In this document: in pieces, positions 5,616 through 21,415 of the stretch
Layout of the letters: every line of letters starts with the position of its first letter
Numbering within the stretch: the stretch's first letter is position 1
Source of the DNA: Candidatus Aegiribacteria sp.
GTDB lineage: Bacteria > Fermentibacterota > Fermentibacteria > Fermentibacterales > JCC-6
Reading direction: 5' to 3'
DNA length: 64,000 bases
NCBI GenBank assembly: GCA_013138965.1
Contig: WTBT01000022.1
Coordinates: forward strand, 7,459-71,458
Notes under the pieces: model-generated
The model's database searches: none
Told to the model about the DNA's origin: nothing
Seen by the model: the letters and a program-made list of their open reading frames with translations, nothing else
Made by a program: the position numbers and the translations under genes

Positions 5616-5791
5616 TCTTTAAGAAAGATTTGACAATAGACAACAAGGGGAAGTATTCTTTTCCCTGCAGTGGTACTTATCAGTTCAGCAGATGCAGGTG
5701 GTATCCTTTTTCTACAACGCTCTTCTTAAGCCTGATCTGCTTTGATAGGGGGTATAGTTTACAACTTGAATTGAACTCTGACAGGAAAATT

Positions 5792-8152
5792 ATGAAAACA
5801 CTTATCTTTTGCGCTGTTCTTGCAATGGCATTCGGTGCCGGTGCAGGTGAAATGACCGTTTCTATACCGATTGATGCCGCAGACATAAATATCACCGAAG
5901 CCGGCATCTATACCAGAATAACCGGCACTGGAATGGGGCTCACGAATGTGGTTGGAGCGCCAAGCCTTCCCGCTTACTCGGCGAAGATAGCACTGCCCAC
6001 AGGCTGCAAGGCGACTGAGATTGAGATCATTGATGCCGAATACACAGTTGTGCGGGGACTGTACAACGTCATGCCGGCTCAAACACCAGTTCCATTATCG
6101 GTTGAGTGGAATGCAGCTCCGGATGAGCCGGATCAGGAAATATACAATTCCAGCTCTTTCTATCCAGCGAATCCCGTTGAATTCACCGGTTCCAGTGTGA
6201 TACTGGGTATACCTGTTGCATACGTGAAGGTATTTCCCGTACGATGGAATCCTTCAAGCAGGACTGTTGATATCCTGACAGAACTTAACCTGCGGGTTAC
6301 TTACGAAAGCAGCACTGAGGCATCTACCGTTTTCAGGAGAAGCATACAGAGCGAGAATCGTTCACAGGAGATTGTAAGAAATACTGTAGTGAACCCCGAA
6401 AAGGTATCGTGCTCGGGTGCTGTAATTGTTGATTCAAAGGATCTGACGTACGGTGAGTACGTAATTATCGCAACCACGGATTACGAAAGCTACGCACAGG
6501 AACTGGCGGACTGGAAAACCTCAAAGGGCGTTCCAGCCAAAGTTTATACAACAACCTGGATTGATGACAATTACAACTGTTATGACCTGCAGCAGGAAAT
6601 CCGCGCGTTCCTGACAGACTGCCGCGACGAAGGGGTTGAATACGTTCTTATCTATGGGGATGACAACATAATAGCAGGCAGGGATGCTAAAATTACTGTC
6701 GGTTCTTATGTGGAATTCCCGCCTGTTGACCTCTACTGGTCAGATATTAACGACATGATTCCGGGAGCCGATCTCTGGGACAGCGACAACGACCATATAT
6801 GGGGCGAGTACGGAATTGACAATGTCGATTACCATCCGGATCTATGGACCGGAAGGGCAAGTGTCAATACAACCAGCGAGTGCACGATCTTCAACGAGAA
6901 AGTGTACGTTTACGAAGGAGTCTCATCCAGAGACTATTTCGAGAGTTCGGAAATTGAAGAGAGAATCGGATACACTACTGAAATGTTGTGGCCCGGGTGT
7001 TACGGCTCCGCCGGCGCAGAGCTGATATCCCTGTACGTTCCATCCGTATGGGAAGAGGAGAAATGCTACGATTCCAGTGCTAACAACAGCGTGGCCATAA
7101 CGAACGGCATGCTCAATGCCGGGCCTCATCATGTATACCACGCAAGCCATGGTTATGCTACAGGATTCTCACTTCCCGGAGGAGCTTACACAACCAGTCA
7201 TTTCAAGAACCTCACCAACATCTCCAGCGGAGGCCTTCCGGCAATATGGAACTCCATCTCGTGTCTCATCGGACATCTGGATGGATACGAATGCATGGGC
7301 GATGCCTGGAACAACTCCCCTGCCGGAGGAGGTTTCGGGGCTTTCAACGCGAGGTACGGCTTCGGGAACCCCGGCAACCCCGGTTATGGAGTAAGTGAGA
7401 TACAATGCAGGTATTTTTACGACGTAATGTGGAACGATGACCTGTACATTCTAGGTGTAACCCATGCAATGGGTGACGATGAAATGTGTCCTCCGTCGAG
7501 TGAAACAGAAGACTGGTGCGTTAAGGAATACAACCTTTTTGGAGATCCGGAACTTCCCATGTGGTTCGTTGACGCCCCGGACATTAACGCTTCACATATC
7601 GCAACCATTTCCGGAGCGACAAATGTGACAGTTGCCGTTACTTCAGATGGGTCACCTGTAAGCGGAGCGAGGGTCTGCCTTCAGAAGGGGGACTGGCAGA
7701 CTGGCGATATTTACAAGGTTGCAGCAACAAATGCTGCCGGAGAGTGTGATTTCTATATCAATCCTTCTTCCACAGGCACCATATCCGTTGTAGCCTGGGC
7801 AAGAGATCATATCTCCTATAAGGGAAGCATAAGCGTTACCGGCACAGGATTTGAGGGGGGGGGGCCTCAGAATTACATCAACGTTCTTGATGCTGTATAC
7901 CCAAGCCCCGCAACTAACAGCGCTACAATACCCTTCAGCCTTGCTTCAGATGGTATTGCCAGGGTTGATGTGTACGATATAACAGGTCGCCTTGTTACAA
8001 ACCTTGCTGCCGAAGAGATGGCTACCGGCGAGCACAGCCTGGTATGGAGACTTGAAGACGCAAATGGAGAAGCTGTACCGTCGGGAGTTTACCATGTAAG
8101 GGTTTCAACCAGCGACTGGTCAGGCACGATAAACCTGGTAGTTATAAGATAG
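5792..8152 (+). CDS. peptidase C25 (gingipain-like) family protein with C-terminal T9SS (Por_Secre_tail) sorting domain
   Basis: ATG at 5792 (MKTLIFCAVLAMAFGAGAG signal peptide) inside ORF 5630..8152. C25-like region (..VLIYGDDN.., HASHGY, SISCL) followed by C-terminal 'YPSPATNSATIPFSL..VDVYDITGRLV..GEHSLVWR..SGVYHVRVST' typical of T9SS CTDs. Confidence 0.6.
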   Translation: MKTLIFCAVLAMAFGAGAGEMTVSIPIDAADINITEAGIYTRITGTGMGLTNVVGAPSLPAYSAKIALPTGCKATEIEIIDAEYTVVRGLYNVMPAQTPVPLSVEWNAAPDEPDQEIYNSSSFYPANPVEFTGSSVILGIPVAYVKVFPVRWNPSSRTVDILTELNLRVTYESSTEASTVFRRSIQSENRSQEIVRNTVVNPEKVSCSGAVIVDSKDLTYGEYVIIATTDYESYAQELADWKTSKGVPAKVYTTTWIDDNYNCYDLQQEIRAFLTDCRDEGVEYVLIYGDDNIIAGRDAKITVGSYVEFPPVDLYWSDINDMIPGADLWDSDNDHIWGEYGIDNVDYHPDLWTGRASVNTTSECTIFNEKVYVYEGVSSRDYFESSEIEERIGYTTEMLWPGCYGSAGAELISLYVPSVWEEEKCYDSSANNSVAITNGMLNAGPHHVYHASHGYATGFSLPGGAYTTSHFKNLTNISSGGLPAIWNSISCLIGHLDGYECMGDAWNNSPAGGGFGAFNARYGFGNPGNPGYGVSEIQCRYFYDVMWNDDLYILGVTHAMGDDEMCPPSSETEDWCVKEYNLFGDPELPMWFVDAPDINASHIATISGATNVTVAVTSDGSPVSGARVCLQKGDWQTGDIYKVAATNAAGECDFYINPSSTGTISVVAWARDHISYKGSISVTGTGFEGGGPQNYINVLDAVYPSPATNSATIPFSLASDGIARVDVYDITGRLVTNLAAEEMATGEHSLVWRLEDANGEAVPSGVYHVRVSTSDWSGTINLVVIR
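7855..7864 (+). repeat. homopolymeric G10 tract inside the C25 protease gene
   Basis: ttgaGGGGGGGGGGcct encodes F-E-G-G-G-P at the junction between the protease body and the T9SS CTD. Confidence 0.7.
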
Positions 8153-8254: not shown

Positions 8255-9904
8255 CTATTGCATCACCGAAACAGTACCATCATTATAATTCACGATATAT
8301 GCAGCCTTACCTGAGGGAAGTGAACAGATACTGGAAGGGTTGCCTCCAACATTTCTGGTTCTAATCACTTTATTGTCTGAAGTGCGGATCAGCGATACAG
8401 TATCATCTGTACTGTTTGCGACGAAAACACACTCTCCTGAAGGATGAGAACAGAGTCCCCAGGGGCCGTTGCCGACATTGACGGTTTTCACCAGCGAATT
8501 ATCGGAGGTACGGATAACTGCTACCACATCGTTGCTGTAATTGGATACGTATACGAAATCTCCTGATGGAAGCGTGCATATGCCTATGGGGTGTGTAAAC
8601 ATGTCAATGGTTTTTACTACTGAGTTGTCTGAGGTGCGGATGACGGAAACGTTGTTGGAATTCCAGTTAGTAACGTATACGTAATTCCCCGAAGGAAGGG
8701 AACAGATGCGATAGGGGGTAGTTCCGACATCGACGGTTGTCACAACGGAGTTGTCGGAAGTACGAATAACAGAAACATTATCATCATCTCGATTCGTAAC
8801 GTAGACATATTCACCCGAAGGAAGGGAACAGATGCCAACAGGCCTGTCTCCCGCAATGATGGTTGCGACGACGGAGTTGCTGGAAGTACGGATGACAGAA
8901 ACGTTATCGGAACCACAGTTAGTCACATACACATATTCACCGGATGGAAGAGAGCAGATGCCATAAGGGATATCTCCCACATTGACTGTAGCTGAGACTG
9001 AATTGTCTGATGTGCGGATAACGGATACGTTATCATCACCGCGGTTTGTCACATAGACGTACTCCCCGGAAGGGAGTGAACAGATACCCCATGGGTTAGA
9101 GCCGACATCCAGGGTTTCTGTAACATTATAAGGTATATATGTCATAGTACTCGAAGTGATCTCATTGCTCCAGCTGGAGATATCCTCGGTGTTCGCAGTA
9201 AGGAGCGCGTAGTAGTAAGTTGATGAAGATAAAACGGTGGTATCGGTATAGGCGGTATCCAATGACCAGGAAAGATCGCATATCAATTCTGCAAGTGTGG
9301 AATCATCTTCAATATTCGGCGTAAGAGATCTGTACAGTCTGTATGAATCGAAATTGGGATTGGGACACTTGGTCCAGGATAGATCAACATAGTACCACGA
9401 AACATCTACTTCGGAGAGCACAGAGGGGGCAGGGGCTTCGATTTCAGGTGTAGTAATCGACACCTCATTGCTCCATACACCATTACCGCCGGAATCAGTG
9501 TTCTTCAGAACGTAGAAATATTCCGTATCCCATGTAATATCAGTGTCTACGTATATCGACGTATTAACCTGAGTGAATTCACCAAGGATCTTTGCGGAGG
9601 AAGGATCGGAGGAGATGTCGTTCGTCTCTGATCTGTAAAGAACATAGCTGTGGAACCCCTGATCGGAACAGATAGTCCAGGAAGCTGTTATTATGCAGCT
9701 GCTCTTCGTGCCTGTTGAATTCCGCCCTAGAGCTGATGCGGAAAGATCCGAAGCAGCGTCTGGCCCAGCTTTGCCGGTATGGCCGGTAAAGCTGACTGAC
9801 AGGGTGGAGGGAGAGAGATCGGATCCGGAAGGACCGGTACTGTCCCCGCATGCAAGTAGAAGAGCAAGTGTGATAGCGATGGTAACATTCATTAAATTAT
9901 TCAT
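8255..9904 (-). CDS. lipoprotein with FN3-like domains and seven YVTN-family beta-propeller repeats
   Basis: Lipobox LALLLAC-GDS. Seven ~41-aa repeats of 'YVYVTN..DNVSVIRTSDNSVV.TV.VG..P.GICSLPSGE' match the 40-residue YVTN beta-propeller repeat. FN3-like 'W..V...W' regions lie upstream. Confidence 0.7.
   Translation of the reverse strand: MNNLMNVTIAITLALLLACGDSTGPSGSDLSPSTLSVSFTGHTGKAGPDAASDLSASALGRNSTGTKSSCIITASWTICSDQGFHSYVLYRSETNDISSDPSSAKILGEFTQVNTSIYVDTDITWDTEYFYVLKNTDSGGNGVWSNEVSITTPEIEAPAPSVLSEVDVSWYYVDLSWTKCPNPNFDSYRLYRSLTPNIEDDSTLAELICDLSWSLDTAYTDTTVLSSSTYYYALLTANTEDISSWSNEITSSTMTYIPYNVTETLDVGSNPWGICSLPSGEYVYVTNRGDDNVSVIRTSDNSVSATVNVGDIPYGICSLPSGEYVYVTNCGSDNVSVIRTSSNSVVATIIAGDRPVGICSLPSGEYVYVTNRDDDNVSVIRTSDNSVVTTVDVGTTPYRICSLPSGNYVYVTNWNSNNVSVIRTSDNSVVKTIDMFTHPIGICTLPSGDFVYVSNYSNDVVAVIRTSDNSLVKTVNVGNGPWGLCSHPSGECVFVANSTDDTVSLIRTSDNKVIRTRNVGGNPSSICSLPSGKAAYIVNYNDGTVSVMQ
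8290..9130 (-). repeat. intragenic ~123-bp tandem DNA repeats (x7) encoding the YVTN repeats
   Basis: Repeated 'gtatacgtaattccccgaaggaagggaacagatgc...' units are visible directly in the sequence. Confidence 0.6.
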
Positions 9905-12263: not shown

Positions 12264-12389
12264 CATTCGCTATTACTGCGCCTTATCCCGGAGAAAAACT
12301 GATTATGGACATTCGTTCAGAATGTTATTATCTCTGTAAATGTGGCTGTTACAGTGTACATATGGAGTTTGAGAAGGGGGAGGCTGAAA

Positions 12390-14135
12390 ATGGGCTATTA
12401 CGCCAGCGCTTTTCTATTTGCGTTTCTGATTCTGCTTGCTTCTGCCGGAAATGCAGAGGGAAAATACACATGTGAAGATGATCTTATCGAAGTGATGTTC
12501 ACAGAGGATTCCGCCGTAAGGCTCCGATCCGGAACGCTTGTAGATCTTTCTGATAGTGGAGCTCTGGATGGTCTTGAAGAAGTGCTTGAGCTTACGGATG
12601 GTTACCAGTGGGAGAGGATATCAACGATCTCAGAGGAAGCAGTTGATGAAATGGAGTTGAGGGGGGAACAGCTAACAGGCAAAGATATCTACAATCTCAA
12701 CAATATTTACAGGCTCAGATTCCAGGGTGATATAAATGTATGGGAGTTCGCGGTGATACTGCAGGGGCTTCCCGGGATCATCAGCGCAATACCGGTGCCG
12801 CTTCCACAGCTCCCTCCCCAGCCACCGAATTATCAGGGGATGCAGGGTTACCTGAAAGCTGCTTCGTTCACTCCCACCGGAATCGATGCCATTTACGCCT
12901 GGACACAGTCTGGAGGTGACGGCACCGGAGTAACGGTCTGCGACCTGGAATACAGCTGGAACTACAACCATGCAGATCTGACCAAAGCTCCGGGTTCACA
13001 GATAAACAGCTTCGTGCAGGACCCTTTCAGTAATAATAATCATGGCACAGCAGTTATCGGCGAGATGGTATCCGACTTTAACGGCTGGGGCACAACAGGA
13101 ATCTGTCATGCCGCAGGCATTAAAACCTGCGGTACGTATTATGGTAATCCCACACCGGGATGGAACGTGCCCGGGGCGCTCATCGTGGCCATATCAAACC
13201 TGTCCGCAGGAGATGTGATACTGCTGGAACAGCAGTGGGAGTACGTTTCCGGATCAAATGATTATGTGCCGATTGAATGGTGGGGCGCTACTTCTCCCAA
13301 CGCGCAGCAGTATAATGCCGTATACGCCGCCATTCAGAATGCCGTATCCAACGGTATACATGTTGTGGAAGCCGGAGGGAATGCTGTTAACGGCGGCGGC
13401 GTTGATATGGATCCAATGCCATGGTTTGGTGACAGCGGAGCGATAATTGTCGGTGCCGGAGGCGCATACACGAGCGGTGATCTGGTTAGGCTTTATTATT
13501 CAAATTACGGTTCAAGATTTACTTCCCATGGCTGGGGAGAGGATGTAGTGACAACAGGATACGGAACCCTCTACAGCAGTATGGGCGTGAACTACTACTA
13601 CGCCTCGGGGTTTTCGGGCACGTCCAGCGCCTCCCCGATGGTGGCCGGCGCCGCGGCCTGCTGTGTCGGCTACTGGGTGGCCAACGGCAACCCGGTGAAT
13701 ACACTTACACCGGCAATGCTGAGATCAACTCTTTCAAATACAGGAACGCTTCAGATATTTCCTCCTTCCGGGAGCATTGGGACAAGACCGAATCTAATGG
13801 GAGCTTTCGCGTACCTCTATTCTGTTGGTATAGGCACAACGATGGAGCCTTCCGGTTCAGTCGCCATGAGCGTTTTCCCGAATCCGGCATCGGAGTATGT
13901 AACCATCGAGCTCTTCCGCTCTTCGGAGATGACATCTCTTCATGGTCTTGCGATTTACGACATCTCCGGAAGACAGGTGGCAAACTTCGGTAAATCGAGT
14001 GTCATGGCAGGCGAAGCAGTAGTCTGGGACTGCAGGAACATGAGCGGCAGCAGAGTACCAGGGGGACTCTATACAGCAGCAGGAGTTTACGATTCCGGTT
14101 CGGTAACGGTGCCATTCATCATCCTGAGCAGGTAG
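12390..14135 (+). CDS. subtilisin-like serine protease (peptidase S8) with C-terminal T9SS sorting domain
   Basis: Catalytic motifs: Asp (GTGVTVCDLE), His (NNHGTAVIG), Ser (GTSSASPMVAG). CTD '..VFPNPASEYVTIEL..IYDISGRQV..GLYTAAGVYDSGS'. An AAGGGGGAGG Shine-Dalgarno precedes the ATG at 12390. Confidence 0.85.
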   Translation: MGYYASAFLFAFLILLASAGNAEGKYTCEDDLIEVMFTEDSAVRLRSGTLVDLSDSGALDGLEEVLELTDGYQWERISTISEEAVDEMELRGEQLTGKDIYNLNNIYRLRFQGDINVWEFAVILQGLPGIISAIPVPLPQLPPQPPNYQGMQGYLKAASFTPTGIDAIYAWTQSGGDGTGVTVCDLEYSWNYNHADLTKAPGSQINSFVQDPFSNNNHGTAVIGEMVSDFNGWGTTGICHAAGIKTCGTYYGNPTPGWNVPGALIVAISNLSAGDVILLEQQWEYVSGSNDYVPIEWWGATSPNAQQYNAVYAAIQNAVSNGIHVVEAGGNAVNGGGVDMDPMPWFGDSGAIIVGAGGAYTSGDLVRLYYSNYGSRFTSHGWGEDVVTTGYGTLYSSMGVNYYYASGFSGTSSASPMVAGAAACCVGYWVANGNPVNTLTPAMLRSTLSNTGTLQIFPPSGSIGTRPNLMGAFAYLYSVGIGTTMEPSGSVAMSVFPNPASEYVTIELFRSSEMTSLHGLAIYDISGRQVANFGKSSVMAGEAVVWDCRNMSGSRVPGGLYTAAGVYDSGSVTVPFIILSR

Positions 14136-16160: not shown

Positions 16161-16574
16161 ATGGTTCATGGTAGAACGATAACGGTATCGACAGCGGGGT
16201 TTTCGGATATAGTCGACATTTCAGGTGAGGTTCAGTCCACTGTATCGGCTTCGGGAATAGCGGATGGTCTTGTCGCTGTGACAGTAATCGGCTCAACGGC
16301 TTCCGTTACCACAATTGAGCACGAACCGGCACTGGTTGAGGATATGAAGGAACTGCTTGAAAAGATGGTTCCAAGGAATATCAGATCCCGTCATTCAGAA
16401 ACCTGGGGTGATGACAATGGATTCTCACACATGAGAGCTTCCCTTATGGGTCCCGGCATTACGCTCCCCGTCGTGGATGGCAGAGTATTGACCGGAACAT
16501 GGCAGCAGATAATTGTTGTGGATCATGATAATCGTCCCCGCCGGCGCGATGTAAGGGTACAGGTTACAGGTTGA
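16161..16574 (+). CDS. YjbQ/UPF0047 family protein (secondary thiamine-phosphate synthase-like)
   Basis: C-terminal signature 'HMRASLMGPGITLPVVDGRVLTGTWQQIIVVDHDNRPRRR' matches the YjbQ family. The ATG at 16161 is in frame within ORF 15699..16574. Confidence 0.7.
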   Translation: MVHGRTITVSTAGFSDIVDISGEVQSTVSASGIADGLVAVTVIGSTASVTTIEHEPALVEDMKELLEKMVPRNIRSRHSETWGDDNGFSHMRASLMGPGITLPVVDGRVLTGTWQQIIVVDHDNRPRRRDVRVQVTG

Positions 16575-16603
16575 AGGCAGGAGCATTGAAAAAGGCTGCA
16601 TTG

Positions 16604-17581
16604 ATGATTAGGCGAATCAGACCCTTCTTACGTATTACTATTTTGACAGTTGTATCTTTATGGGCGCTGGCTTCGCTATCATGTATTTTCGATTCTGAGC
16701 CCTCCGTACCTGCTTATCCCGCAGAAATCGATGCCGAGATAGCGTTTGGCAGCATAGGCTCACCCTCCATATGCAAATGCATGATCGATTACGATATTGC
16801 TCTTGTCGCCGCGGGAACCAGCCTTGCCGTGATTGACATCGTTAACGGGAAAAACGAATCCGTTTTTGATCTAGGGCTGGAGATAGATGACATCGCCGAC
16901 AGCGACGTAAATGGTTTCGGATACGTTCTGACGGATTCCCTTCTCTACCCTGTGAAACTTTCAGGCGCGGTCCTTGAAAACCCCATAAATATCGGTACCG
17001 GCTGCAGTTTCGTTTCGGTATCATCAGGGAGCGATGCAGGATGGGTTTCCATGGATAATGACAGTATTGCAATGCTTGACCTGGCAACCGGGAAAGTATC
17101 AGTTGTACAGGATTATGCCGTAAAGGACTGTCAAGGTATCGCTTTGGCTGATAACGGAGCTCTCTACATAGCTGACGGCAGTAACAACCTTATTATCGGA
17201 TACAATACCGACACATGGGCTGAGATAGGACGTGTTACCGTTCCAGGTGATGTGCACGACCTATTTCCCGGGCCTTCAGGCTACATCTGCGCGATTGTTG
17301 ACGGCAGCAATGAACTCTGGTTCATTAAATCCGAAACCTGCACACTTTATAAGATGATCACATTTCCTGCAATCCCAACCGCCGCAGCCGCGATGCCCGA
17401 TGGCAGCTTCGCATATGCCGCATGTCCGGGAACCGGAATGGTCATTGTTGCCGAGAGTGGTCAGATTGAACTGAAAACGATGGATTTCGGTCTGCCCTCC
17501 GGCATTGACGTAAGCAATGACGGACAACGGGCGGTTATCTGTGCTCCTGATAAGGAAGCTGTGTATGTACTTGTGAGATGA
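16604..17581 (+). CDS. lipoprotein, beta-propeller-like (YncE/YVTN-like)
   Basis: Signal peptide with lipobox LASLSC. Repeated 'G...DG..LY.AD' style blades. Confidence 0.5.
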   Translation: MIRRIRPFLRITILTVVSLWALASLSCIFDSEPSVPAYPAEIDAEIAFGSIGSPSICKCMIDYDIALVAAGTSLAVIDIVNGKNESVFDLGLEIDDIADSDVNGFGYVLTDSLLYPVKLSGAVLENPINIGTGCSFVSVSSGSDAGWVSMDNDSIAMLDLATGKVSVVQDYAVKDCQGIALADNGALYIADGSNNLIIGYNTDTWAEIGRVTVPGDVHDLFPGPSGYICAIVDGSNELWFIKSETCTLYKMITFPAIPTAAAAMPDGSFAYAACPGTGMVIVAESGQIELKTMDFGLPSGIDVSNDGQRAVICAPDKEAVYVLVR

Positions 17582-17663: not shown

Positions 17664-18278
17664 TCAAAAGGATGCTTTTATAGCTCCCCAGCTATTTCCT
17701 TCAAGGGCAAGCAAGTCATGCAGCTCGAAGAAAGAATCAAATTCTTGCTGATACAAAAACATCGTAGTCACAAACTGATCCATGTGGTAAACCCACATTG
17801 TTGAACCGAAGACAAGAGGCTGCTGAGCACACCAGAACGAGTTGAACGATGGCATTTTAGCCTCAAGCCAGTAAGTCTCTCCGGCAGAAACTGATGCGGC
17901 GCTCGGAAGAGTACAGGTGGTTTGATAAACAGGATTCCCAAGGCATTCGGTTCCGGTATCAACATGGGTAGCAGGTGAAAGCCCGGAGGTTACCGGAGTT
18001 GCCGTATTCGGGTTATTATCTCCGTTGTCTTTAGTGATGCTCAGAAAGATGTTTGCGGGTGGTCCCTGTGTATGCACCATCCAGAGTACAACATAGTTGA
18101 CATCTCCGGAAAACTCCGGCACGAAATCATCAGCCAATATCTCCGCCGACAGCATACCTCGCATATTTTCAAAAACATAAGTCTGCGAAAATATGGCGTT
18201 ATCGGTCTGAGCGCTGAGGGATACAGCAAAAACAGCCAAACATACAAATATTGTTATATACTTAACCATGTTAATCAA
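17664..18278 (-). CDS. hypothetical secreted protein, paralog pair member ending in ...LALEGNSWGAIKASF
   Basis: Signal peptide MVKYITIFVCLAVFAVSLSAQ. The C-terminal tail is shared with the adjacent gene. Confidence 0.5.
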   Translation of the reverse strand: MINMVKYITIFVCLAVFAVSLSAQTDNAIFSQTYVFENMRGMLSAEILADDFVPEFSGDVNYVVLWMVHTQGPPANIFLSITKDNGDNNPNTATPVTSGLSPATHVDTGTECLGNPVYQTTCTLPSAASVSAGETYWLEAKMPSFNSFWCAQQPLVFGSTMWVYHMDQFVTTMFLYQQEFDSFFELHDLLALEGNSWGAIKASF

Positions 18279-18413
18279 CCTTTCCTAAAAAATTGACCGC
18301 ATATGATTCAATTACAATCTGATTACGTGCCACCATACTCCGATTGAGTATACTGCCCTGCATAGCCGGGGGCGGACACGAAGCCCGGCCCCCTCAATGT
18401 GTCGGACACGCTC

Positions 18414-19046
18414 CTAAAACGAATTCTTTATAGAACCCCAGGTTGAATTATCAAGTGCCGTAAGCGCTCCGAACTGGGCTTTTGTGAAAAATATACCGAA
18501 GAAGCCAGGCTGCGCTTCGAATGCGATCTTTGTGATATCCTCATCGGAGTAAACTCCCCAGAATACACCGGCAGGCGTGCTGGGAGGGACAATCACAACC
18601 GAAGTGCCAAGAGAACCGCTGGCTCCGAACACATTTATATCATAAACGCCGGGCGCAATGGGCATGAGTACAGAAATTCCGAACGCATTTACGGGAACGC
18701 TGAACGAGTACAGGGCTACATCGAGGTGCCGAGGACCCACTGCCACATTGAGCAGCCCCATTATGGGAGGAGTAGCGACAACATTCTCTCTGCCTGTATC
18801 ATTATCAAGGGATATTCCCTCCACAATATCACCGGGGGAGAAACATTTATTATCGGTCAGGCTGTTGAAGGGCCCCGTGACAAATCCCATATCATCCACC
18901 GGCACGTTTGTGTTCGAGTAGTCCTCTTTCGTAAGACCGGGATAGAGGGTTTCGAAGGAAGTCTGATCCGTGTAGAAGGTTATACCAGCCGTAGCCACGC
19001 AGGCTCCTAGCAGAAGAACGGACAGAAGGCAAGCAAGATTTCTCAT
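18414..19046 (-). CDS. hypothetical secreted protein, paralog pair member ending in ...LTALDNSTWGSIKNSF
   Basis: Signal peptide MRNLACLLSVLLLGACVATAG. N-terminal 'ITFYTDQTSFETLYPGLTKEDYSN' resembles N-terminal domains of PEP-CTERM-type exported proteins, but the C-terminus has no transmembrane helix or PEP motif. Confidence 0.5.
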   Translation of the reverse strand: MRNLACLLSVLLLGACVATAGITFYTDQTSFETLYPGLTKEDYSNTNVPVDDMGFVTGPFNSLTDNKCFSPGDIVEGISLDNDTGRENVVATPPIMGLLNVAVGPRHLDVALYSFSVPVNAFGISVLMPIAPGVYDINVFGASGSLGTSVVIVPPSTPAGVFWGVYSDEDITKIAFEAQPGFFGIFFTKAQFGALTALDNSTWGSIKNSF

Positions 19047-19341
19047 AAAGATCCTCCTTAAATTCAGTGTGAAACCAGAATATTGAAGATGAATTCGATA
19101 GTGTCAATGGTGATATTCCAATATATTTCCAATACTGATCTTGCCTGTATAAAATATATATTTTGTATATAGCCTGAACGTTTGATCTTAACGCTCACAC
19201 AAAGGGCATACTGATTTTTCGTAATATTCTATATTATTGTGTTTGCCATGAAGAGTTATGGATGCTTCACATTCTGTATTGGATTGCGTGGAAATGGACA
19301 GACTGATCCGTATCCTTCAGAAAGCTGATTGCAGATTCTGT

Positions 19342-20220
19342 TCAATTCTGTTCAAATGGCGTAATCGGGATGTTTCTCTCGAATGTGCTCCTGAGTACTG
19401 TGGCCTGGAGAGTATCATCTGAGAGGATCAGGAGGCCTCGAAGGGTTTCGGGATGATAAACCGGAGTGCCATTTATATGTGTTATAAGATCACCAGGCCT
19501 CAATCCAGCCTCCCAGGCTATGCTTCCTGTGGAGACAGAGACAATATGAATTCCCGAAGGTCTGGAGCATGTAAGGGATATGCTTGATAGAGCGGTTACA
19601 CCGAAGGAATACTCAGTGTATTCTTCGGACAGAACAACCAGTTTTGACCACATGTACCAGATCTGAGCGGGATAAAGAACAAGATAATCCCTGTTGTCGG
19701 TTTCCTGGAACTGTCGATCCGGCCTTATTATTCCCGTGATGATTCCAACGTACTCTTCGTTGTCGTTGAAGACCGCGGCACCCATAAGACCGTCCCTGAG
19801 ATCGGAAGTTAGAAGAAATGATCCGTCCGGGCACTGTTCCCTTGCTCTGCCCTCCACGGCAAGCACACCGGTTAATCCATGGCCGATTATCGTAAGTGTC
19901 TCTCCTATATCCGGTATTACATCGGAGGGGATCTGATAGCTGTCGAAGATCTCTTCATAAAAAGTCATTATCACCATACCCAGATCCGGTGATACAATGA
20001 AGGAATCAGGATAAAGTATCCCGGAAGATGTTTCTACGGTCACGGAATCATCCGGGGAAAATATACAGAGTGTTACGGCATGGTTGGGTGAAATCGCAAC
20101 CGCTGTGGAGAGTTCTATCGCACCGGATGAGGTCTCGATTCTTACCGGAAGTACCTGATCCATCAGGGAGGCAGGTGCTGCGAGCACTGCAACTGCAATA
20201 AGAAACGGGATCATTATCAC
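19342..20220 (-). CDS. periplasmic HtrA-like trypsin-fold plus PDZ protein, probable pseudo-protease
   Basis: Signal peptide. PDZ-like 'GIHIVSVSTGSIAWEAGLRPGDLITHINGTPV'. The trypsin-like region has 'RDGLMGAAVF' where GDSGGPL is expected, so the catalytic Ser is not evident. Confidence 0.55.
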   Translation of the reverse strand: MIMIPFLIAVAVLAAPASLMDQVLPVRIETSSGAIELSTAVAISPNHAVTLCIFSPDDSVTVETSSGILYPDSFIVSPDLGMVIMTFYEEIFDSYQIPSDVIPDIGETLTIIGHGLTGVLAVEGRAREQCPDGSFLLTSDLRDGLMGAAVFNDNEEYVGIITGIIRPDRQFQETDNRDYLVLYPAQIWYMWSKLVVLSEEYTEYSFGVTALSSISLTCSRPSGIHIVSVSTGSIAWEAGLRPGDLITHINGTPVYHPETLRGLLILSDDTLQATVLRSTFERNIPITPFEQN

Positions 20221-20691
20221 CTAGAAGGAAATCAGGCTCGCCTGCCTGGAATATTCAGAGAAAGGAGCTGTCCTGATGCCCGATTTCGAAGAAAGCCGGA
20301 TGTCAGCGTTCTTGGATTCGTGTATGGCCATTTCGATGCCTGAAGGTTCAGTAATCGATTCCTGATCGCCGGAAAGAGGAAGTATCGCGAGGGCGAAGAT
20401 CAGAAGAGCGGCAACAGCGGGAAGCGCCAGAAATGCGCTGCGGAACCCGTGATCCGAATGCCTGATATCGGCGGTGCTATGAAGCATTTCCCTGATATTC
20501 TTTTCAAGATCCGGAGAAGGGGGCGGAGCGGGTAGTTTTCCGGCTATCTCCGAAATATCCCTGCACATGCTCATAGCTTTTCTGCAGGAACCGCAGCCCA
20601 TCAGATGGAAATCAAGAAGCCTTTTCTGATATTCAGCAGCTTCTCCATCGATAACAAGACTTATTATTTTTACTGCATTTGAACAGTTCAT
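20221..20691 (-). CDS. anti-sigma factor, zf-HC2 type with one TM helix
   Basis: 'HLMGCGSCRKAMSMC' zinc-finger motif plus TM segment FLALPAVAALLIFALAIL. Its ATG overlaps the sigma-factor stop as ATGA (20688-20691). Confidence 0.65.
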   Translation of the reverse strand: MNCSNAVKIISLVIDGEAAEYQKRLLDFHLMGCGSCRKAMSMCRDISEIAGKLPAPPPSPDLEKNIREMLHSTADIRHSDHGFRSAFLALPAVAALLIFALAILPLSGDQESITEPSGIEMAIHESKNADIRLSSKSGIRTAPFSEYSRQASLISF

Positions 20692-21218
20692 TTCCACTCT
20701 TCCCATACATGATCCAGTAGATCCCTCAGTCTTGTCCTGGCGCGGTTAATCCTTGATTTTACAGTTCCAAGGCGGATATTGAGGACATCCGAAATGTCTT
20801 CGTACGACATCTGTTCCTGTTCTCTTAGAATGAACGGCTCTCTGTAATGGGGAGGCAGCTTGTCAACTGCTTCCTCTATCGATGCCCTGAGTTCAATTCT
20901 TCCGGCATTGTAATGCGGCGCAGTCTTGCCTGAACTTGTAAGGTTGACATGTTCAAGCGGGACATTTATCCATCTTGACCTTCTGCGCCATTCCTTCTTT
21001 GCCAGATTGCTGGCGATTGTGAATATCCAGTTTACCAGTTTCCTGTCGGTATCGAATTTGTCTCTGTACCTGTAAACCCTGCAGAACGTGAGCTGGAGCA
21101 TTTCGTGGGCATCTTCCTCGTTTCCGAGCATCCTTATCAGCATTGAGTAAATCGGAGCCTGAAATCTTCTGATTACTTCAGAAAAGGCCTCTTCATCGCC
21201 TTTGCAGAGGTCAATCAT
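20688..21218 (-). CDS. ECF (sigma-70 family, group IV) RNA polymerase sigma factor
   Basis: Region 2 '..EAFSEVIRRFQAPIYSMLIRMLGNEEDAHEMLQLTFCRVY' and region 4 'MSYEDISDVLNIRLGTVKSRINRARTRL'. ORF 20688..21389 is 233 aa; the internal ATG at 21218 gives the usual ~177 aa and leaves room for a promoter. Confidence 0.8.
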   Translation of the reverse strand: MIDLCKGDEEAFSEVIRRFQAPIYSMLIRMLGNEEDAHEMLQLTFCRVYRYRDKFDTDRKLVNWIFTIASNLAKKEWRRRSRWINVPLEHVNLTSSGKTAPHYNAGRIELRASIEEAVDKLPPHYREPFILREQEQMSYEDISDVLNIRLGTVKSRINRARTRLRDLLDHVWEEWK

Positions 21219-21415
21219 AAGTTCGGAATCGGATCTTGAATCTTTTTCCGTACGTTTGGCTGTTATAATTCTTCCAGTCAAAATACACCTTCCTGGAGTC
21301 GGCGCCTGGGGTCGGCAATCAGTATCTTCACAGATAATATACCCGATACCGCCTGTCTTGTTCCAGCCTTCATTACTTGACCTGAACATGATATTTGGTG
21401 AAGATAGTGTCTACC

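Follow-up and report, generated by a model that had tools for sequence, protein, structure and literature searches.

What links two neighbouring genes whose products resemble each other only in their last few residues? The question is posed by a 64,000-nucleotide stretch of a Candidatus Aegiribacteria contig (WTBT01000022.1), hereafter the window, in which two minus-strand genes, at positions 17664–18278 (protein 1) and 18414–19046 (protein 2), had been described in a sequence-only reading as adjacent paralogs of 204 and 210 amino acids, each with a signal peptide, that diverge along most of their length and end in a nearly identical tail. This tail was proposed to be a sorting or anchoring signal, for example an outer-membrane beta-signal, or a novel C-terminal recognition tag. 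Both open reading frames were found at these positions. The 204 residues of protein 1 are counted from a TTG at 18278, as in the open reading frame list; a likelier start is the ATG at 18269, which is preceded by the Shine-Dalgarno-like sequence AGGAAAGG and yields 201 residues, as in the NCBI record GQ565_04185 from Ca. Aegiribacteria, with which protein 1 shares 100% identity. Protein 2, of 210 residues in the same list, is 100% identical to NCBI GQ565_04190, and its gene has a Shine-Dalgarno sequence, AAGGAGG, on its 5′ side. A sigma-70-like promoter match (TTGACA, a 17-nt spacer and AATATT) also lies 5′ of this gene at 19079–19107 on the minus strand; it agrees with 10 of 12 consensus positions in a consensus scan and is to be read as a consensus match only, not as evidence of function.

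The signal peptides of both proteins were recognised from translation, a hydrophobicity heuristic and an N-terminal helix in the AlphaFold models, and their cleavage sites are predicted. That of protein 1 occupies 18210–18278 on the minus strand ((LIN)MVKYITIFVCLAVFAVSLSA, then QT), its modelled helix having low pLDDT, and that of protein 2 occupies 18987–19046 on the minus strand (MRNLACLLSVLLLGACVATA, then G). The cysteine in this second signal peptide is not shared across the family, and protein 2 is therefore not considered a lipoprotein. Between signal peptide and C-terminal tail, protein 1 is predicted to have a beta-sandwich body and protein 2 a CBM-like beta-sandwich domain.

In protein 1 the tail, ALEGNSWGAIKASF, is encoded at 17667–17708 on the minus strand and is followed by a stop codon at 17664–17666 (DNA-pattern match at 17664–17705); in protein 2 it reads ALDNSTWGSIKNSF, is encoded at 18417–18458 on the minus strand and is followed by a stop codon at 18414–18416 (DNA-pattern match at 18414–18455). 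The translated products thus close with ...DLLALEGNSWGAIKASF and ...GALTALDNSTWGSIKNSF, respectively. At full length the two proteins are 25% identical by BLASTP (E = 7e-5), and once the last 16 residues are cut, the best E value rises to 6.3, which corresponds to no detectable similarity; the similarity is therefore confined to the tail, as the sequence-only reading had maintained. Its term “paralogs” does not stand, since neither the proteins nor their families show any detectable relation outside the tail and paralogy is not demonstrable. The tail is absent from every other open reading frame of the window, and a degenerate DNA pattern representing it gives two matches there against 0.00 in 100 shuffled sequences.

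A scan with this DNA pattern over 185,579 species genomes returned at least 117 loci, among whose listed matches 125 open reading frames end in the tail. A tandem duplication of uniform similarity, with a tail occurring nowhere else, is at odds with this number of loci and with the lack of similarity between the bodies. Among the matches listed, the tail is specific to Fermentibacterota plus at least one Eisenbacteria genome: of the 117 loci, 86 carry the label Fermentibacterota and 25 the label “uncultured bacterium”, and a further one belongs to an Eisenbacteria contig of 2.3 Mb. The same scan of a viral collection gave one match only, by chance. The source metagenome-assembled genome (MAG) contains at least five copies, another single MAG at least eight loci, and two or more tail genes stand in tandem at 18 of 108 loci. 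A 16-column tail profile searched against 1.84 billion representatives at E ≤ 0.001 was uninformative on breadth: of its five matches, three are terminal tails and the other two are artefacts of repeats. A signal-peptide-like start was detected by the hydrophobicity heuristic in 91 of the 103 complete open reading frames that end in the tail.

As delimited by its conservation, the tag is the last ~14 residues of these proteins, with the consensus [A/S]-L-[E/D/Q]-x-x-[T/S]-W-G-x-I-K-x-x-F-COOH. Within 424,000 aa of open reading frames, WG.IK..F forms the exact C-terminus in all 118 cases among the matches listed, and 17 tail variants that fall outside the selection imposed by the pattern are terminal as well. 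The W, I, K, S and F of the tag are invariant in relatives of protein 1 down to 40% identity, and the tag of protein 2 is kept in 25 relatives. Positions that the pattern leaves unconstrained are also conserved (A/S at −13, R/Q at −10, small residues at −5 and −2), conservation of the residues N-terminal to the tag being at background level. With Phe taken as position 0, position −2 is occupied by A, S, T, V and N in 12, 6, 4, 3 and 2 cases, respectively. One sub-lineage carries 1–3 residues beyond the Phe, and a free Phe carboxylate is therefore not strictly required. The tag is written in varied synonymous codons, with all three stop codons, at loci of 40–67% GC; synonymous sites vary freely, and the tag is under selection as a peptide. 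A DNA-level repeat was considered and ruled out by this variation of synonymous sites and stop codons, the two window tails matching at only 29 of 54 nucleotides.

The bodies that carry this peptide are diverse. They fall into at least 27 BLAST-unrelated clusters, of which 15–17 groups remain in profile-profile comparison after removal of signal peptide and tag. Most of the proteins have 190–330 aa and a signal peptide, and the domains matched in Pfam and NCBIfam include DNRLRE, choice-of-anchor J, CBM96, LTD, DUF7901, F5/8-C and the DUF4350 family, the last of which we take to be an alpha/beta fold. Protein 1 matches choice_anch_R (NF041539) and DUF7901 weakly (18.1 bits against a cutoff of 30, E = 0.002, and 13.7 bits against a cutoff of 24, E = 0.061), and two other tail proteins match DUF7901 at E = 4e-6. 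The passenger domain of protein 2 (residues 22–193, ending ...AQFG; 18468–18983, minus strand) was delimited by its alignment with a domain inside a 784-aa metagenomic protein (34% identity, E = 5e-23), which ends immediately before the tag; the domain is also internal in giant proteins that have no tag. PDB sequence searches gave no relatives, and a profile search of the protein 1 family for distant relatives with other anchors gave only relatives that bear the tail. A fusion of protein 1 and protein 2 domains in a Rosetta-stone protein (L125) was rejected, the protein 1 match being non-significant and DUF7901 unmatched.

The cargo is unusually uniform, namely small (median 239 aa), mostly beta-rich and with few enzymes, and this uniformity would suit an explanation in which the tail is no tag but a structural or oligomerisation element of one fast-evolving beta-sandwich superfamily, for example a strand donated between tandem-encoded subunits. 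Both window bodies are lectin-like beta-sandwiches, tail genes occur in tandem as described above, and 54 of the proteins chain into a single cluster at BLAST E ≤ 1e-3. The persistence of 15–17 separate groups in profile comparison and the matches to distinct Pfam families, DUF4350 among them, argue against a single superfamily, as does the occurrence of the protein 2 domain elsewhere without the tag and, in one homologue (P0026), with IPTL-CTERM in its stead; the tag also lies, at low confidence, outside the predicted fold. This explanation is accordingly judged improbable, and the shallow cluster profiles together with the uniform cargo make it possible that there is more hidden common ancestry than the 15–17 groups indicate.

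The predicted structures bear directly on the beta-signal that had been offered as an example, and on the beta-barrel that it implies. AlphaFold gives protein 1 a beta-sandwich body (pLDDT 81, pTM 0.76) in which residues 190–204 fall below pLDDT 50, and protein 2 a beta-sandwich (pLDDT 82, pTM 0.79) whose last 20 residues lie at pLDDT 50–69; in both window proteins the tag, at pLDDT 40–69 against ~90 for the body, lies outside the fold. Foldseek relates protein 1 to lectin/CBM-like and phage-fibre beta-sandwiches and protein 2 to CBM6/11/29-like jelly rolls. The tail resembles a beta-signal, which forms the last strand of a barrel recognised by BamA/BamD, in that it ends in Phe and belongs to a Sec-exported protein with an N-terminal signal peptide. 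However, both bodies are confident soluble CBM-like beta-sandwiches, and the barrel reading is rejected because AlphaFold sets the tail outside the confident body, where it forms no strand of the fold. The residue register differs as well: the beta-signal consensus places hydrophobic residues at every second position (−2, −4 and −6) and Gly near −5, whereas the tag has Gly at −6, hydrophobic residues at −4 and −7 and A/S/T at −2. That the tail is a beta-signal is thus extremely improbable.

A different possibility is that the tag binds lipid or LPS directly as an interfacial anchor, with no protein receptor, in the manner of the amphipathic C-terminal peptides of PBP5/6 or MinD. Like these peptides it is short and C-terminal, with many interfacial residues (W, I, F, K), and in the AlphaFold models a short helix of low confidence spans WGxIKx. 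Its bearers are neither lipoproteins (a lipobox-like motif occurs in only 2 of the 103) nor proteins with a transmembrane helix, and they therefore have no other anchor. Against direct lipid binding, the tag is shorter than known anchors, its hydrophobic part spans just 8–9 residues, and helical periodicity gives it no greater hydrophobic moment than strand periodicity does, the helical value being low (0.30); an argument from an amphipathic helix was dropped for this reason. Conservation in the tag is moreover strongly position-specific (invariant G and K, T/S before W, L at −12, an acidic residue or Gln at −11) across unrelated families at 40–67% GC, which is atypical of membrane peptides driven by composition. 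A receptor-free lipid anchor is consequently regarded as unlikely.

The surroundings of the two genes suggest a further reading, in which the tag is the ligand of a PDZ/HtrA-type envelope protein and serves quality control, degradation or stress signalling, with no role in localisation. Genes for an ECF sigma factor, a zf-HC2 anti-sigma factor and an HtrA/DegP-like PDZ protein lie directly upstream on the same strand; the PDZ protein (19342–20220, same strand as the tail genes) has Met at the position of the catalytic Ser. In the sigma-E pathway, a C-terminal YxF of outer-membrane proteins activates DegS. The tag shares with such tails, and with Prc/Ctp substrates, a terminal aromatic residue and small or hydroxyl residues at −2, class-I-like PDZ ligands having the form [S/T]-x-hydrophobic-COOH with a free carboxylate; to judge from its periodicity, the tag could bind as a beta-strand. 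The link between the trio and the tail is not conserved: at other loci the trio is not found again next to tail genes, and only a remnant of it accompanies an 80% orthologue. Furthermore, the 14 conserved residues far exceed the 3–5 read by a PDZ groove, some members continue beyond the Phe, and a dedicated stress or degron tag on dozens of unrelated small proteins in each genome is hard to explain. A PDZ ligand is therefore rated unlikely. Clustering of the neighbourhoods, comprising 1,972 open reading frames, gave no universal or conserved neighbour gene and no candidate reader, none being found because the gene neighbourhoods are uninformative. The most recurrent neighbour “family” in this clustering holds together only through a shared T9SS CTD.

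The same peptide closes dozens of unrelated secreted proteins across a phylum, and a previously undescribed sorting or anchoring tag is for this reason the probable explanation. The tail would then be a lineage-specific C-terminal tag that acts with no transmembrane helix and is read by a putative partner, and the two window genes would probably encode two unrelated cargo proteins of this proposed system that happen to lie side by side. Of the interpretation given in the sequence-only reading, the novel recognition tag is strongly supported (portable, terminal, lineage-restricted, selected at the peptide level and, in one homologue, matched in position by an IPTL-CTERM sorting signal), the beta-signal example is set aside, and a role in sorting or anchoring is what these properties suggest. 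In the mechanism envisaged, the N-terminal signal peptide, to judge from its sequence features, would direct export through Sec; the passenger, usually one lectin-like beta-sandwich of 190–330 aa, is predicted to fold in the envelope; and the flexible tag, placed behind a short Pro/Thr/Gly linker, would be recognised through its sequence by a single envelope partner shared by all cargo. This partner might deliver its cargo to the cell surface or outer membrane, or keep it in place there, and could possibly cleave the tag or attach the protein via the invariant Lys. The system would run parallel to the T9SS CTD, which the same genome places on larger proteins. More tentatively, and with less confidence than the tag itself, the peptide may be the address label of an unrecognised system for protein sorting or surface attachment in Fermentibacterota and some Eisenbacteria. 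Its dedicated putative machinery would be separate from T9SS, exosortase, sortase and BAM, and would serve a large repertoire of small lectin-like surface proteins.

C-terminal sorting signals are the main handle for predicting surface proteomes in uncultured bacteria, and a dedicated machine for secretion or attachment was discovered through each of LPXTG, PEP-CTERM, the T9SS CTD and GlyGly-CTERM. Fermentibacterota, which abound in anaerobic digesters and sulfidic sediments, have to our knowledge no cultured representative. If the proposed reading is true, the tag on dozens of small lectin-like proteins in each genome would mark the likely surface or adhesin repertoire of the phylum, and it would offer annotators a new model as well as a bait for the cognate machinery through phylogenetic profiling. 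As it involves neither a helix nor a folded domain nor a barrel, the architecture of the tag lies outside the established signal classes, and a role in localisation, if confirmed, would broaden the range of sorting signals known in diderm bacteria.

Among known systems, no Pfam or NCBIfam model covers the tail, and literature searches returned no paper describing it. Of the LPXTG-like motif, transmembrane helix and basic tail that mark sortase substrates, the tails contain neither the motif nor the helix. No C-terminal hydrophobic segment was found in the tag proteins, a transmembrane-like segment somewhere beyond residue 60 being flagged in 4 of 111, and the tails gave no HMM match. One likeness is to IPTL-CTERM/PEP-CTERM (PF18203, TIGR04174, PF07589), which likewise lie at the extreme C-terminus of unrelated Sec-exported proteins, are lineage-restricted and occur in multiple copies per genome; some tag cargo also carries “choice-of-anchor” or DNRLRE domains. 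In P0026, which is distantly homologous to protein 2 (34% identity, E = 5.6e-19), IPTL-CTERM (PF18203, E = 1e-9) occupies the position of the tag, and the cores look similar, S-T-W-G-S-I against S-E-W-G-L-I. The tag differs in having no transmembrane helix or Arg/basic cluster, its chain ending 7 residues past the Trp, and the window proteins match none of PF18203, PF07589 and TIGR04174 at E ≤ 10. The idea of a truncated IPTL-CTERM was given up except as a lead, the positions being equivalent but hhalign assigning the tail profile and the IPTL tail of P0026 a probability of 2% over 7 columns. The T9SS type A CTD (TIGR04183/PF18962) is likewise a C-terminal signal of Sec-exported proteins in FCB-group bacteria and is present in the same window and at the same loci as the tag. 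As the sequence-only reading had noted, it is used elsewhere in the window (5630–8152, TIGR04183, 28.5 bits against a cutoff of 23), and its HMM matches neither window protein at E ≤ 10 nor any of 57 tail representatives. The T9SS CTD folds as a domain of ~70–100 aa and ends in …V/I-I-R, whereas the tag comprises ~14 residues modelled at low confidence and ends in …x-x-F, and T9SS cargo at these loci measures 450–740 aa, against the much smaller median of the tag cargo.

The two genes lie head-to-tail on the minus strand (protein 1, 17664-18278, an ORF of 204 aa when read from TTG; protein 2, 18414-19046, 210 aa, GQ565_04190) in a Candidatus Aegiribacteria MAG (Fermentibacterota, formerly Hyd24-12). 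Protein 1 is annotated by NCBI as GQ565_04185, a 201-aa protein starting at ATG 18269, which is probably the correct start rather than TTG 18278; a Shine-Dalgarno-like AGGAAAGG is located ~9 nt upstream of this ATG (minus strand). The 135-bp gap between the genes contains a G+C-rich inverted repeat lacking a T-run (GGGGGCCGGGC…GCCCCCGG; ~18334-18413, minus strand), immediately past the stop codon of protein 2, and no intrinsic terminator was called in the gap. Both proteins begin with a signal-peptide-like segment, identified heuristically, and their translations end in ALEGNSWGAIKASF and ALDNSTWGSIKNSF, respectively. The sequence-only reading described them as paralogs resembling each other only in this tail, and this observation proved correct and even understated: the full-length proteins match by BLASTP at E=7e-5, whereas after removal of the last 16 residues the best E-value is 6.3, and profile-profile comparison revealed no family link between them. 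The label “paralogs” is therefore unjustified, because the tail is their sole detectable similarity. A degenerate DNA pattern encoding the tail matched twice in the window (0.00 in 100 shuffles), and no third tail-bearing ORF was found among the window ORFs.

The tail is more general than was evident from the sequence. A scan of one genome per species (185,579 species) for L-[EDQH]-x-x-[S/T…]-W-G-x-I-K-x-x-F-stop identified at least 117 stretches; at ~35 bits, by our own estimate, roughly 25 chance matches would be expected in the whole 596-Gb collection. Among the matches listed, record titles assign 86 loci to Fermentibacterota lineages, 25 to “uncultured bacterium” MAGs and six to other labels. 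The last include two obvious chance matches (Chryseobacterium, 9-aa ORF; Massilimicrobiota, 17-aa ORF) and three short contigs (L024, L041 and L077, in Victivallales, Deltaproteobacteria and Syntrophaceae bins) that encode typical tail proteins and are probably mis-binned Fermentibacterota contigs; L077 has one gene in common with the window. The sixth, a 2.3-Mb Ca. Eisenbacteria contig of 67% GC (CAWGMA010000001.1, 1,312,001-1,320,000), carries two adjacent tail-bearing genes adjoining a T9SS-CTD protein, and the tag therefore extends beyond Fermentibacterota. A control scan of 2.9 million viral contigs yielded a single match, a 10-aa ORF. At least five tail genes are present in the source MAG (GQ565_04185, _04190, _08130, _09285 and _11325), and we found no published description of the tail in the literature, as far as searchable.

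In ~424,000 residues of tail-locus ORFs, WG.IK..F occurs 118 times, each time at the exact C-terminus, and 17 further variant tails not selected by the pattern (W-A, I to V, F for L at -12, counting back from the terminal Phe as 0) are also terminal; six ORFs have tails with 1-4 extra residues, and the only two internal matches are weak and chance-like. Some sub-lineages carry 1-3 residues beyond Phe (…IKNSFN, …NSFSVN) or variant endings (…IKTILQ, …IKAFVQ), as in the protein 1 homologues P0038, P0057, P0058, P0061, P0067 and P0072 and at loci L033, L034, L048, L100 and L111, so that a free Phe carboxylate is not universally required. With one representative per cluster, positions that the pattern left unconstrained are also conserved (-13 A/S, -10 R/Q, -5 S/A/G, -2 A/S/T); a P/T/G-rich linker precedes the tail, and positions further upstream are at background. 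A DNA repeat was rejected, since synonymous codons and stops vary (Gly GGA/GGC/GGT/GGG, 43/40/35/9; Leu CTT, CTG and CTC; each of the three stops in use) and the tails of the two window genes are identical at only 29 of 54 nt; across tail-encoding loci, GC content varies between 40 and 67%. The tail thus appears, from these patterns, to be under selection as a peptide. By a crude heuristic, 91 of 103 complete ORFs among the matches listed have a signal-peptide-like N-terminus, several of the others being start-codon artefacts, and a lipobox-like motif occurs in only two of the 103.

The 125 ORFs ending at listed matches are mostly 190-330 aa (median 239), and among these matches the bodies, minus the last 16 residues, form 27 BLASTP clusters at E<=1e-5 and 23 at 1e-3; hhalign of the 19 multi-member clusters, stripped of signal peptide and tail, still separated them into 15 groups with a probability threshold of >=50% and into 17 with one of >=80%. 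Scans of 57 representatives against Pfam/NCBIfam detected domains with no relation to one another (DNRLRE, choice-of-anchor J, CBM96 and lamin-tail, as well as DUF7901, F5/8 type C and DUF4350) and no model for the tail, which is a portable module on unrelated proteins; it is very improbable that the tail is instead a structural or oligomerisation element conserved within a single hidden superfamily. Protein 1 has 49 relatives (identity down to ~38%), with the tail W, I, K, S and F invariant in the first aligned set, and protein 2 has 25 close relatives (54-100% identity), all with ALDNSTWGSIKNSF-like ends and labelled Aegiribacteria or Sabulitectum where a source is named. The two genes are also adjacent in an 80%-identical relative (L118), and at L120 a solitary protein 1 paralogue lies amid queuosine and TCA-cycle genes. 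Residues 22-193 of protein 2, which end in …FG, form a domain that defines a new, unannotated family of ~170 aa. This domain occurs internally, with no tail, in two giant multidomain metagenomic proteins, one of 784 aa (L125:291-2642) and one of >1,668 aa with MAM-like and cleaved-adhesin domains (L126:3449-8452).

AlphaFold predicted a confident beta-sandwich body for both window proteins (pLDDT ~90; overall pLDDT 81 and pTM 0.76 for protein 1, 82 and 0.79 for protein 2), with CBM-like or lectin-like jelly rolls and phage-fibre domains as Foldseek neighbours, followed by a low-confidence linker and short helix comprising the tail (pLDDT 40-69). The outer-membrane beta-signal suggested earlier is hardly credible: the cargo does not form a barrel, the tail lies outside the predicted fold and is not one of its strands, and Gly and the hydrophobic residues fall in a different register. 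The tail's behaviour is that of a signal rather than a fold element. The hydrophobic moment calculated for the tail reaches 0.30 at 100 degrees and 0.39 at 170 degrees, and a receptor-independent interfacial lipid anchor seems an unlikely description of it.

Directly upstream of the tail genes, on the same strand, are genes for an ECF sigma factor (20688-21389), a zf-HC2 anti-sigma factor (20221-20706) and a 292-aa HtrA/DegP-like PDZ protein (19342-20220), a layout (19342-21389) recalling sigma-E/RseA/DegS, although the protease of this trio looks inactive from its residues, the catalytic Ser being replaced by Met (GLMGAA versus GNSGGA). Their proximity would fit a tail that binds a PDZ/HtrA-type protein in envelope quality control or signalling; however, the trio is not conserved beside tail genes at other loci, and this role is doubtful. 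The region is flanked by genes for beta-propeller (NHL/YVTN-repeat) proteins, which have signal-peptide or lipoprotein-like N-termini, at 16571-17581 (plus strand, convergent with protein 1) and 8255-9904 (minus strand); a homologue of the former adjoins a tail gene at one other locus (L061). No shared neighbour gene dedicated to the tail was found at the tail loci.

The earlier suggestion of a C-terminal sorting, anchoring or recognition tag stood in that the tail is portable, always terminal and lineage-wide; its function is what we infer. The comparisons show a high-information, obligatorily C-terminal peptide of ~14 residues, present in many copies per genome in one bacterial lineage, and the two window genes are adjacent cargo of this tag. 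Because such a peptide terminates many unrelated exported passengers and has no dedicated neighbour gene, it is somewhat probable that the tail serves as an address tag, which a single common envelope component would recognize by its sequence. Joined by a flexible linker to Sec-exported, non-lipoprotein passengers, the tag would let this component route these proteins to the outer membrane or cell surface, or tether them there, in parallel to T9SS; speculatively, attachment or cleavage might take place at the invariant Lys and the small-residue linker.

The tail fits none of the established signal classes. As the sequence-only reading had noted, it lacks a transmembrane helix; it has no basic cluster either and is not a tripartite exosortase or sortase signal. 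Its S-T-W-G-S-I resembles the IPTL signature S-E-W-G-L-I, a likeness without statistical support (hhalign probability 2%); in P0026, a distant protein 2 homologue (34% identity, E 5.6e-19), the shared domain is followed by a genuine IPTL-CTERM sorting signal (PF18203, E 1e-9), which sits exactly where the tail would. The tail also differs, as proposed, from the T9SS CTD, having no HMM match, while a true type A CTD (TIGR04183, 28.5 bits versus a cutoff of 23) is present in the cargo-like protein at 5630-8152 (plus strand), which also has a weak PorU/C25-like region. In a second such protein (12342-14135, plus strand), the CTD match falls below threshold, and there is a weak resemblance to a subtilisin-like (mycosin) protease. 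Larger proteins encoded at the tail loci commonly carry T9SS CTDs, and the cargo-like proteins in the window confirm T9SS use by the organism in addition to the short tag.
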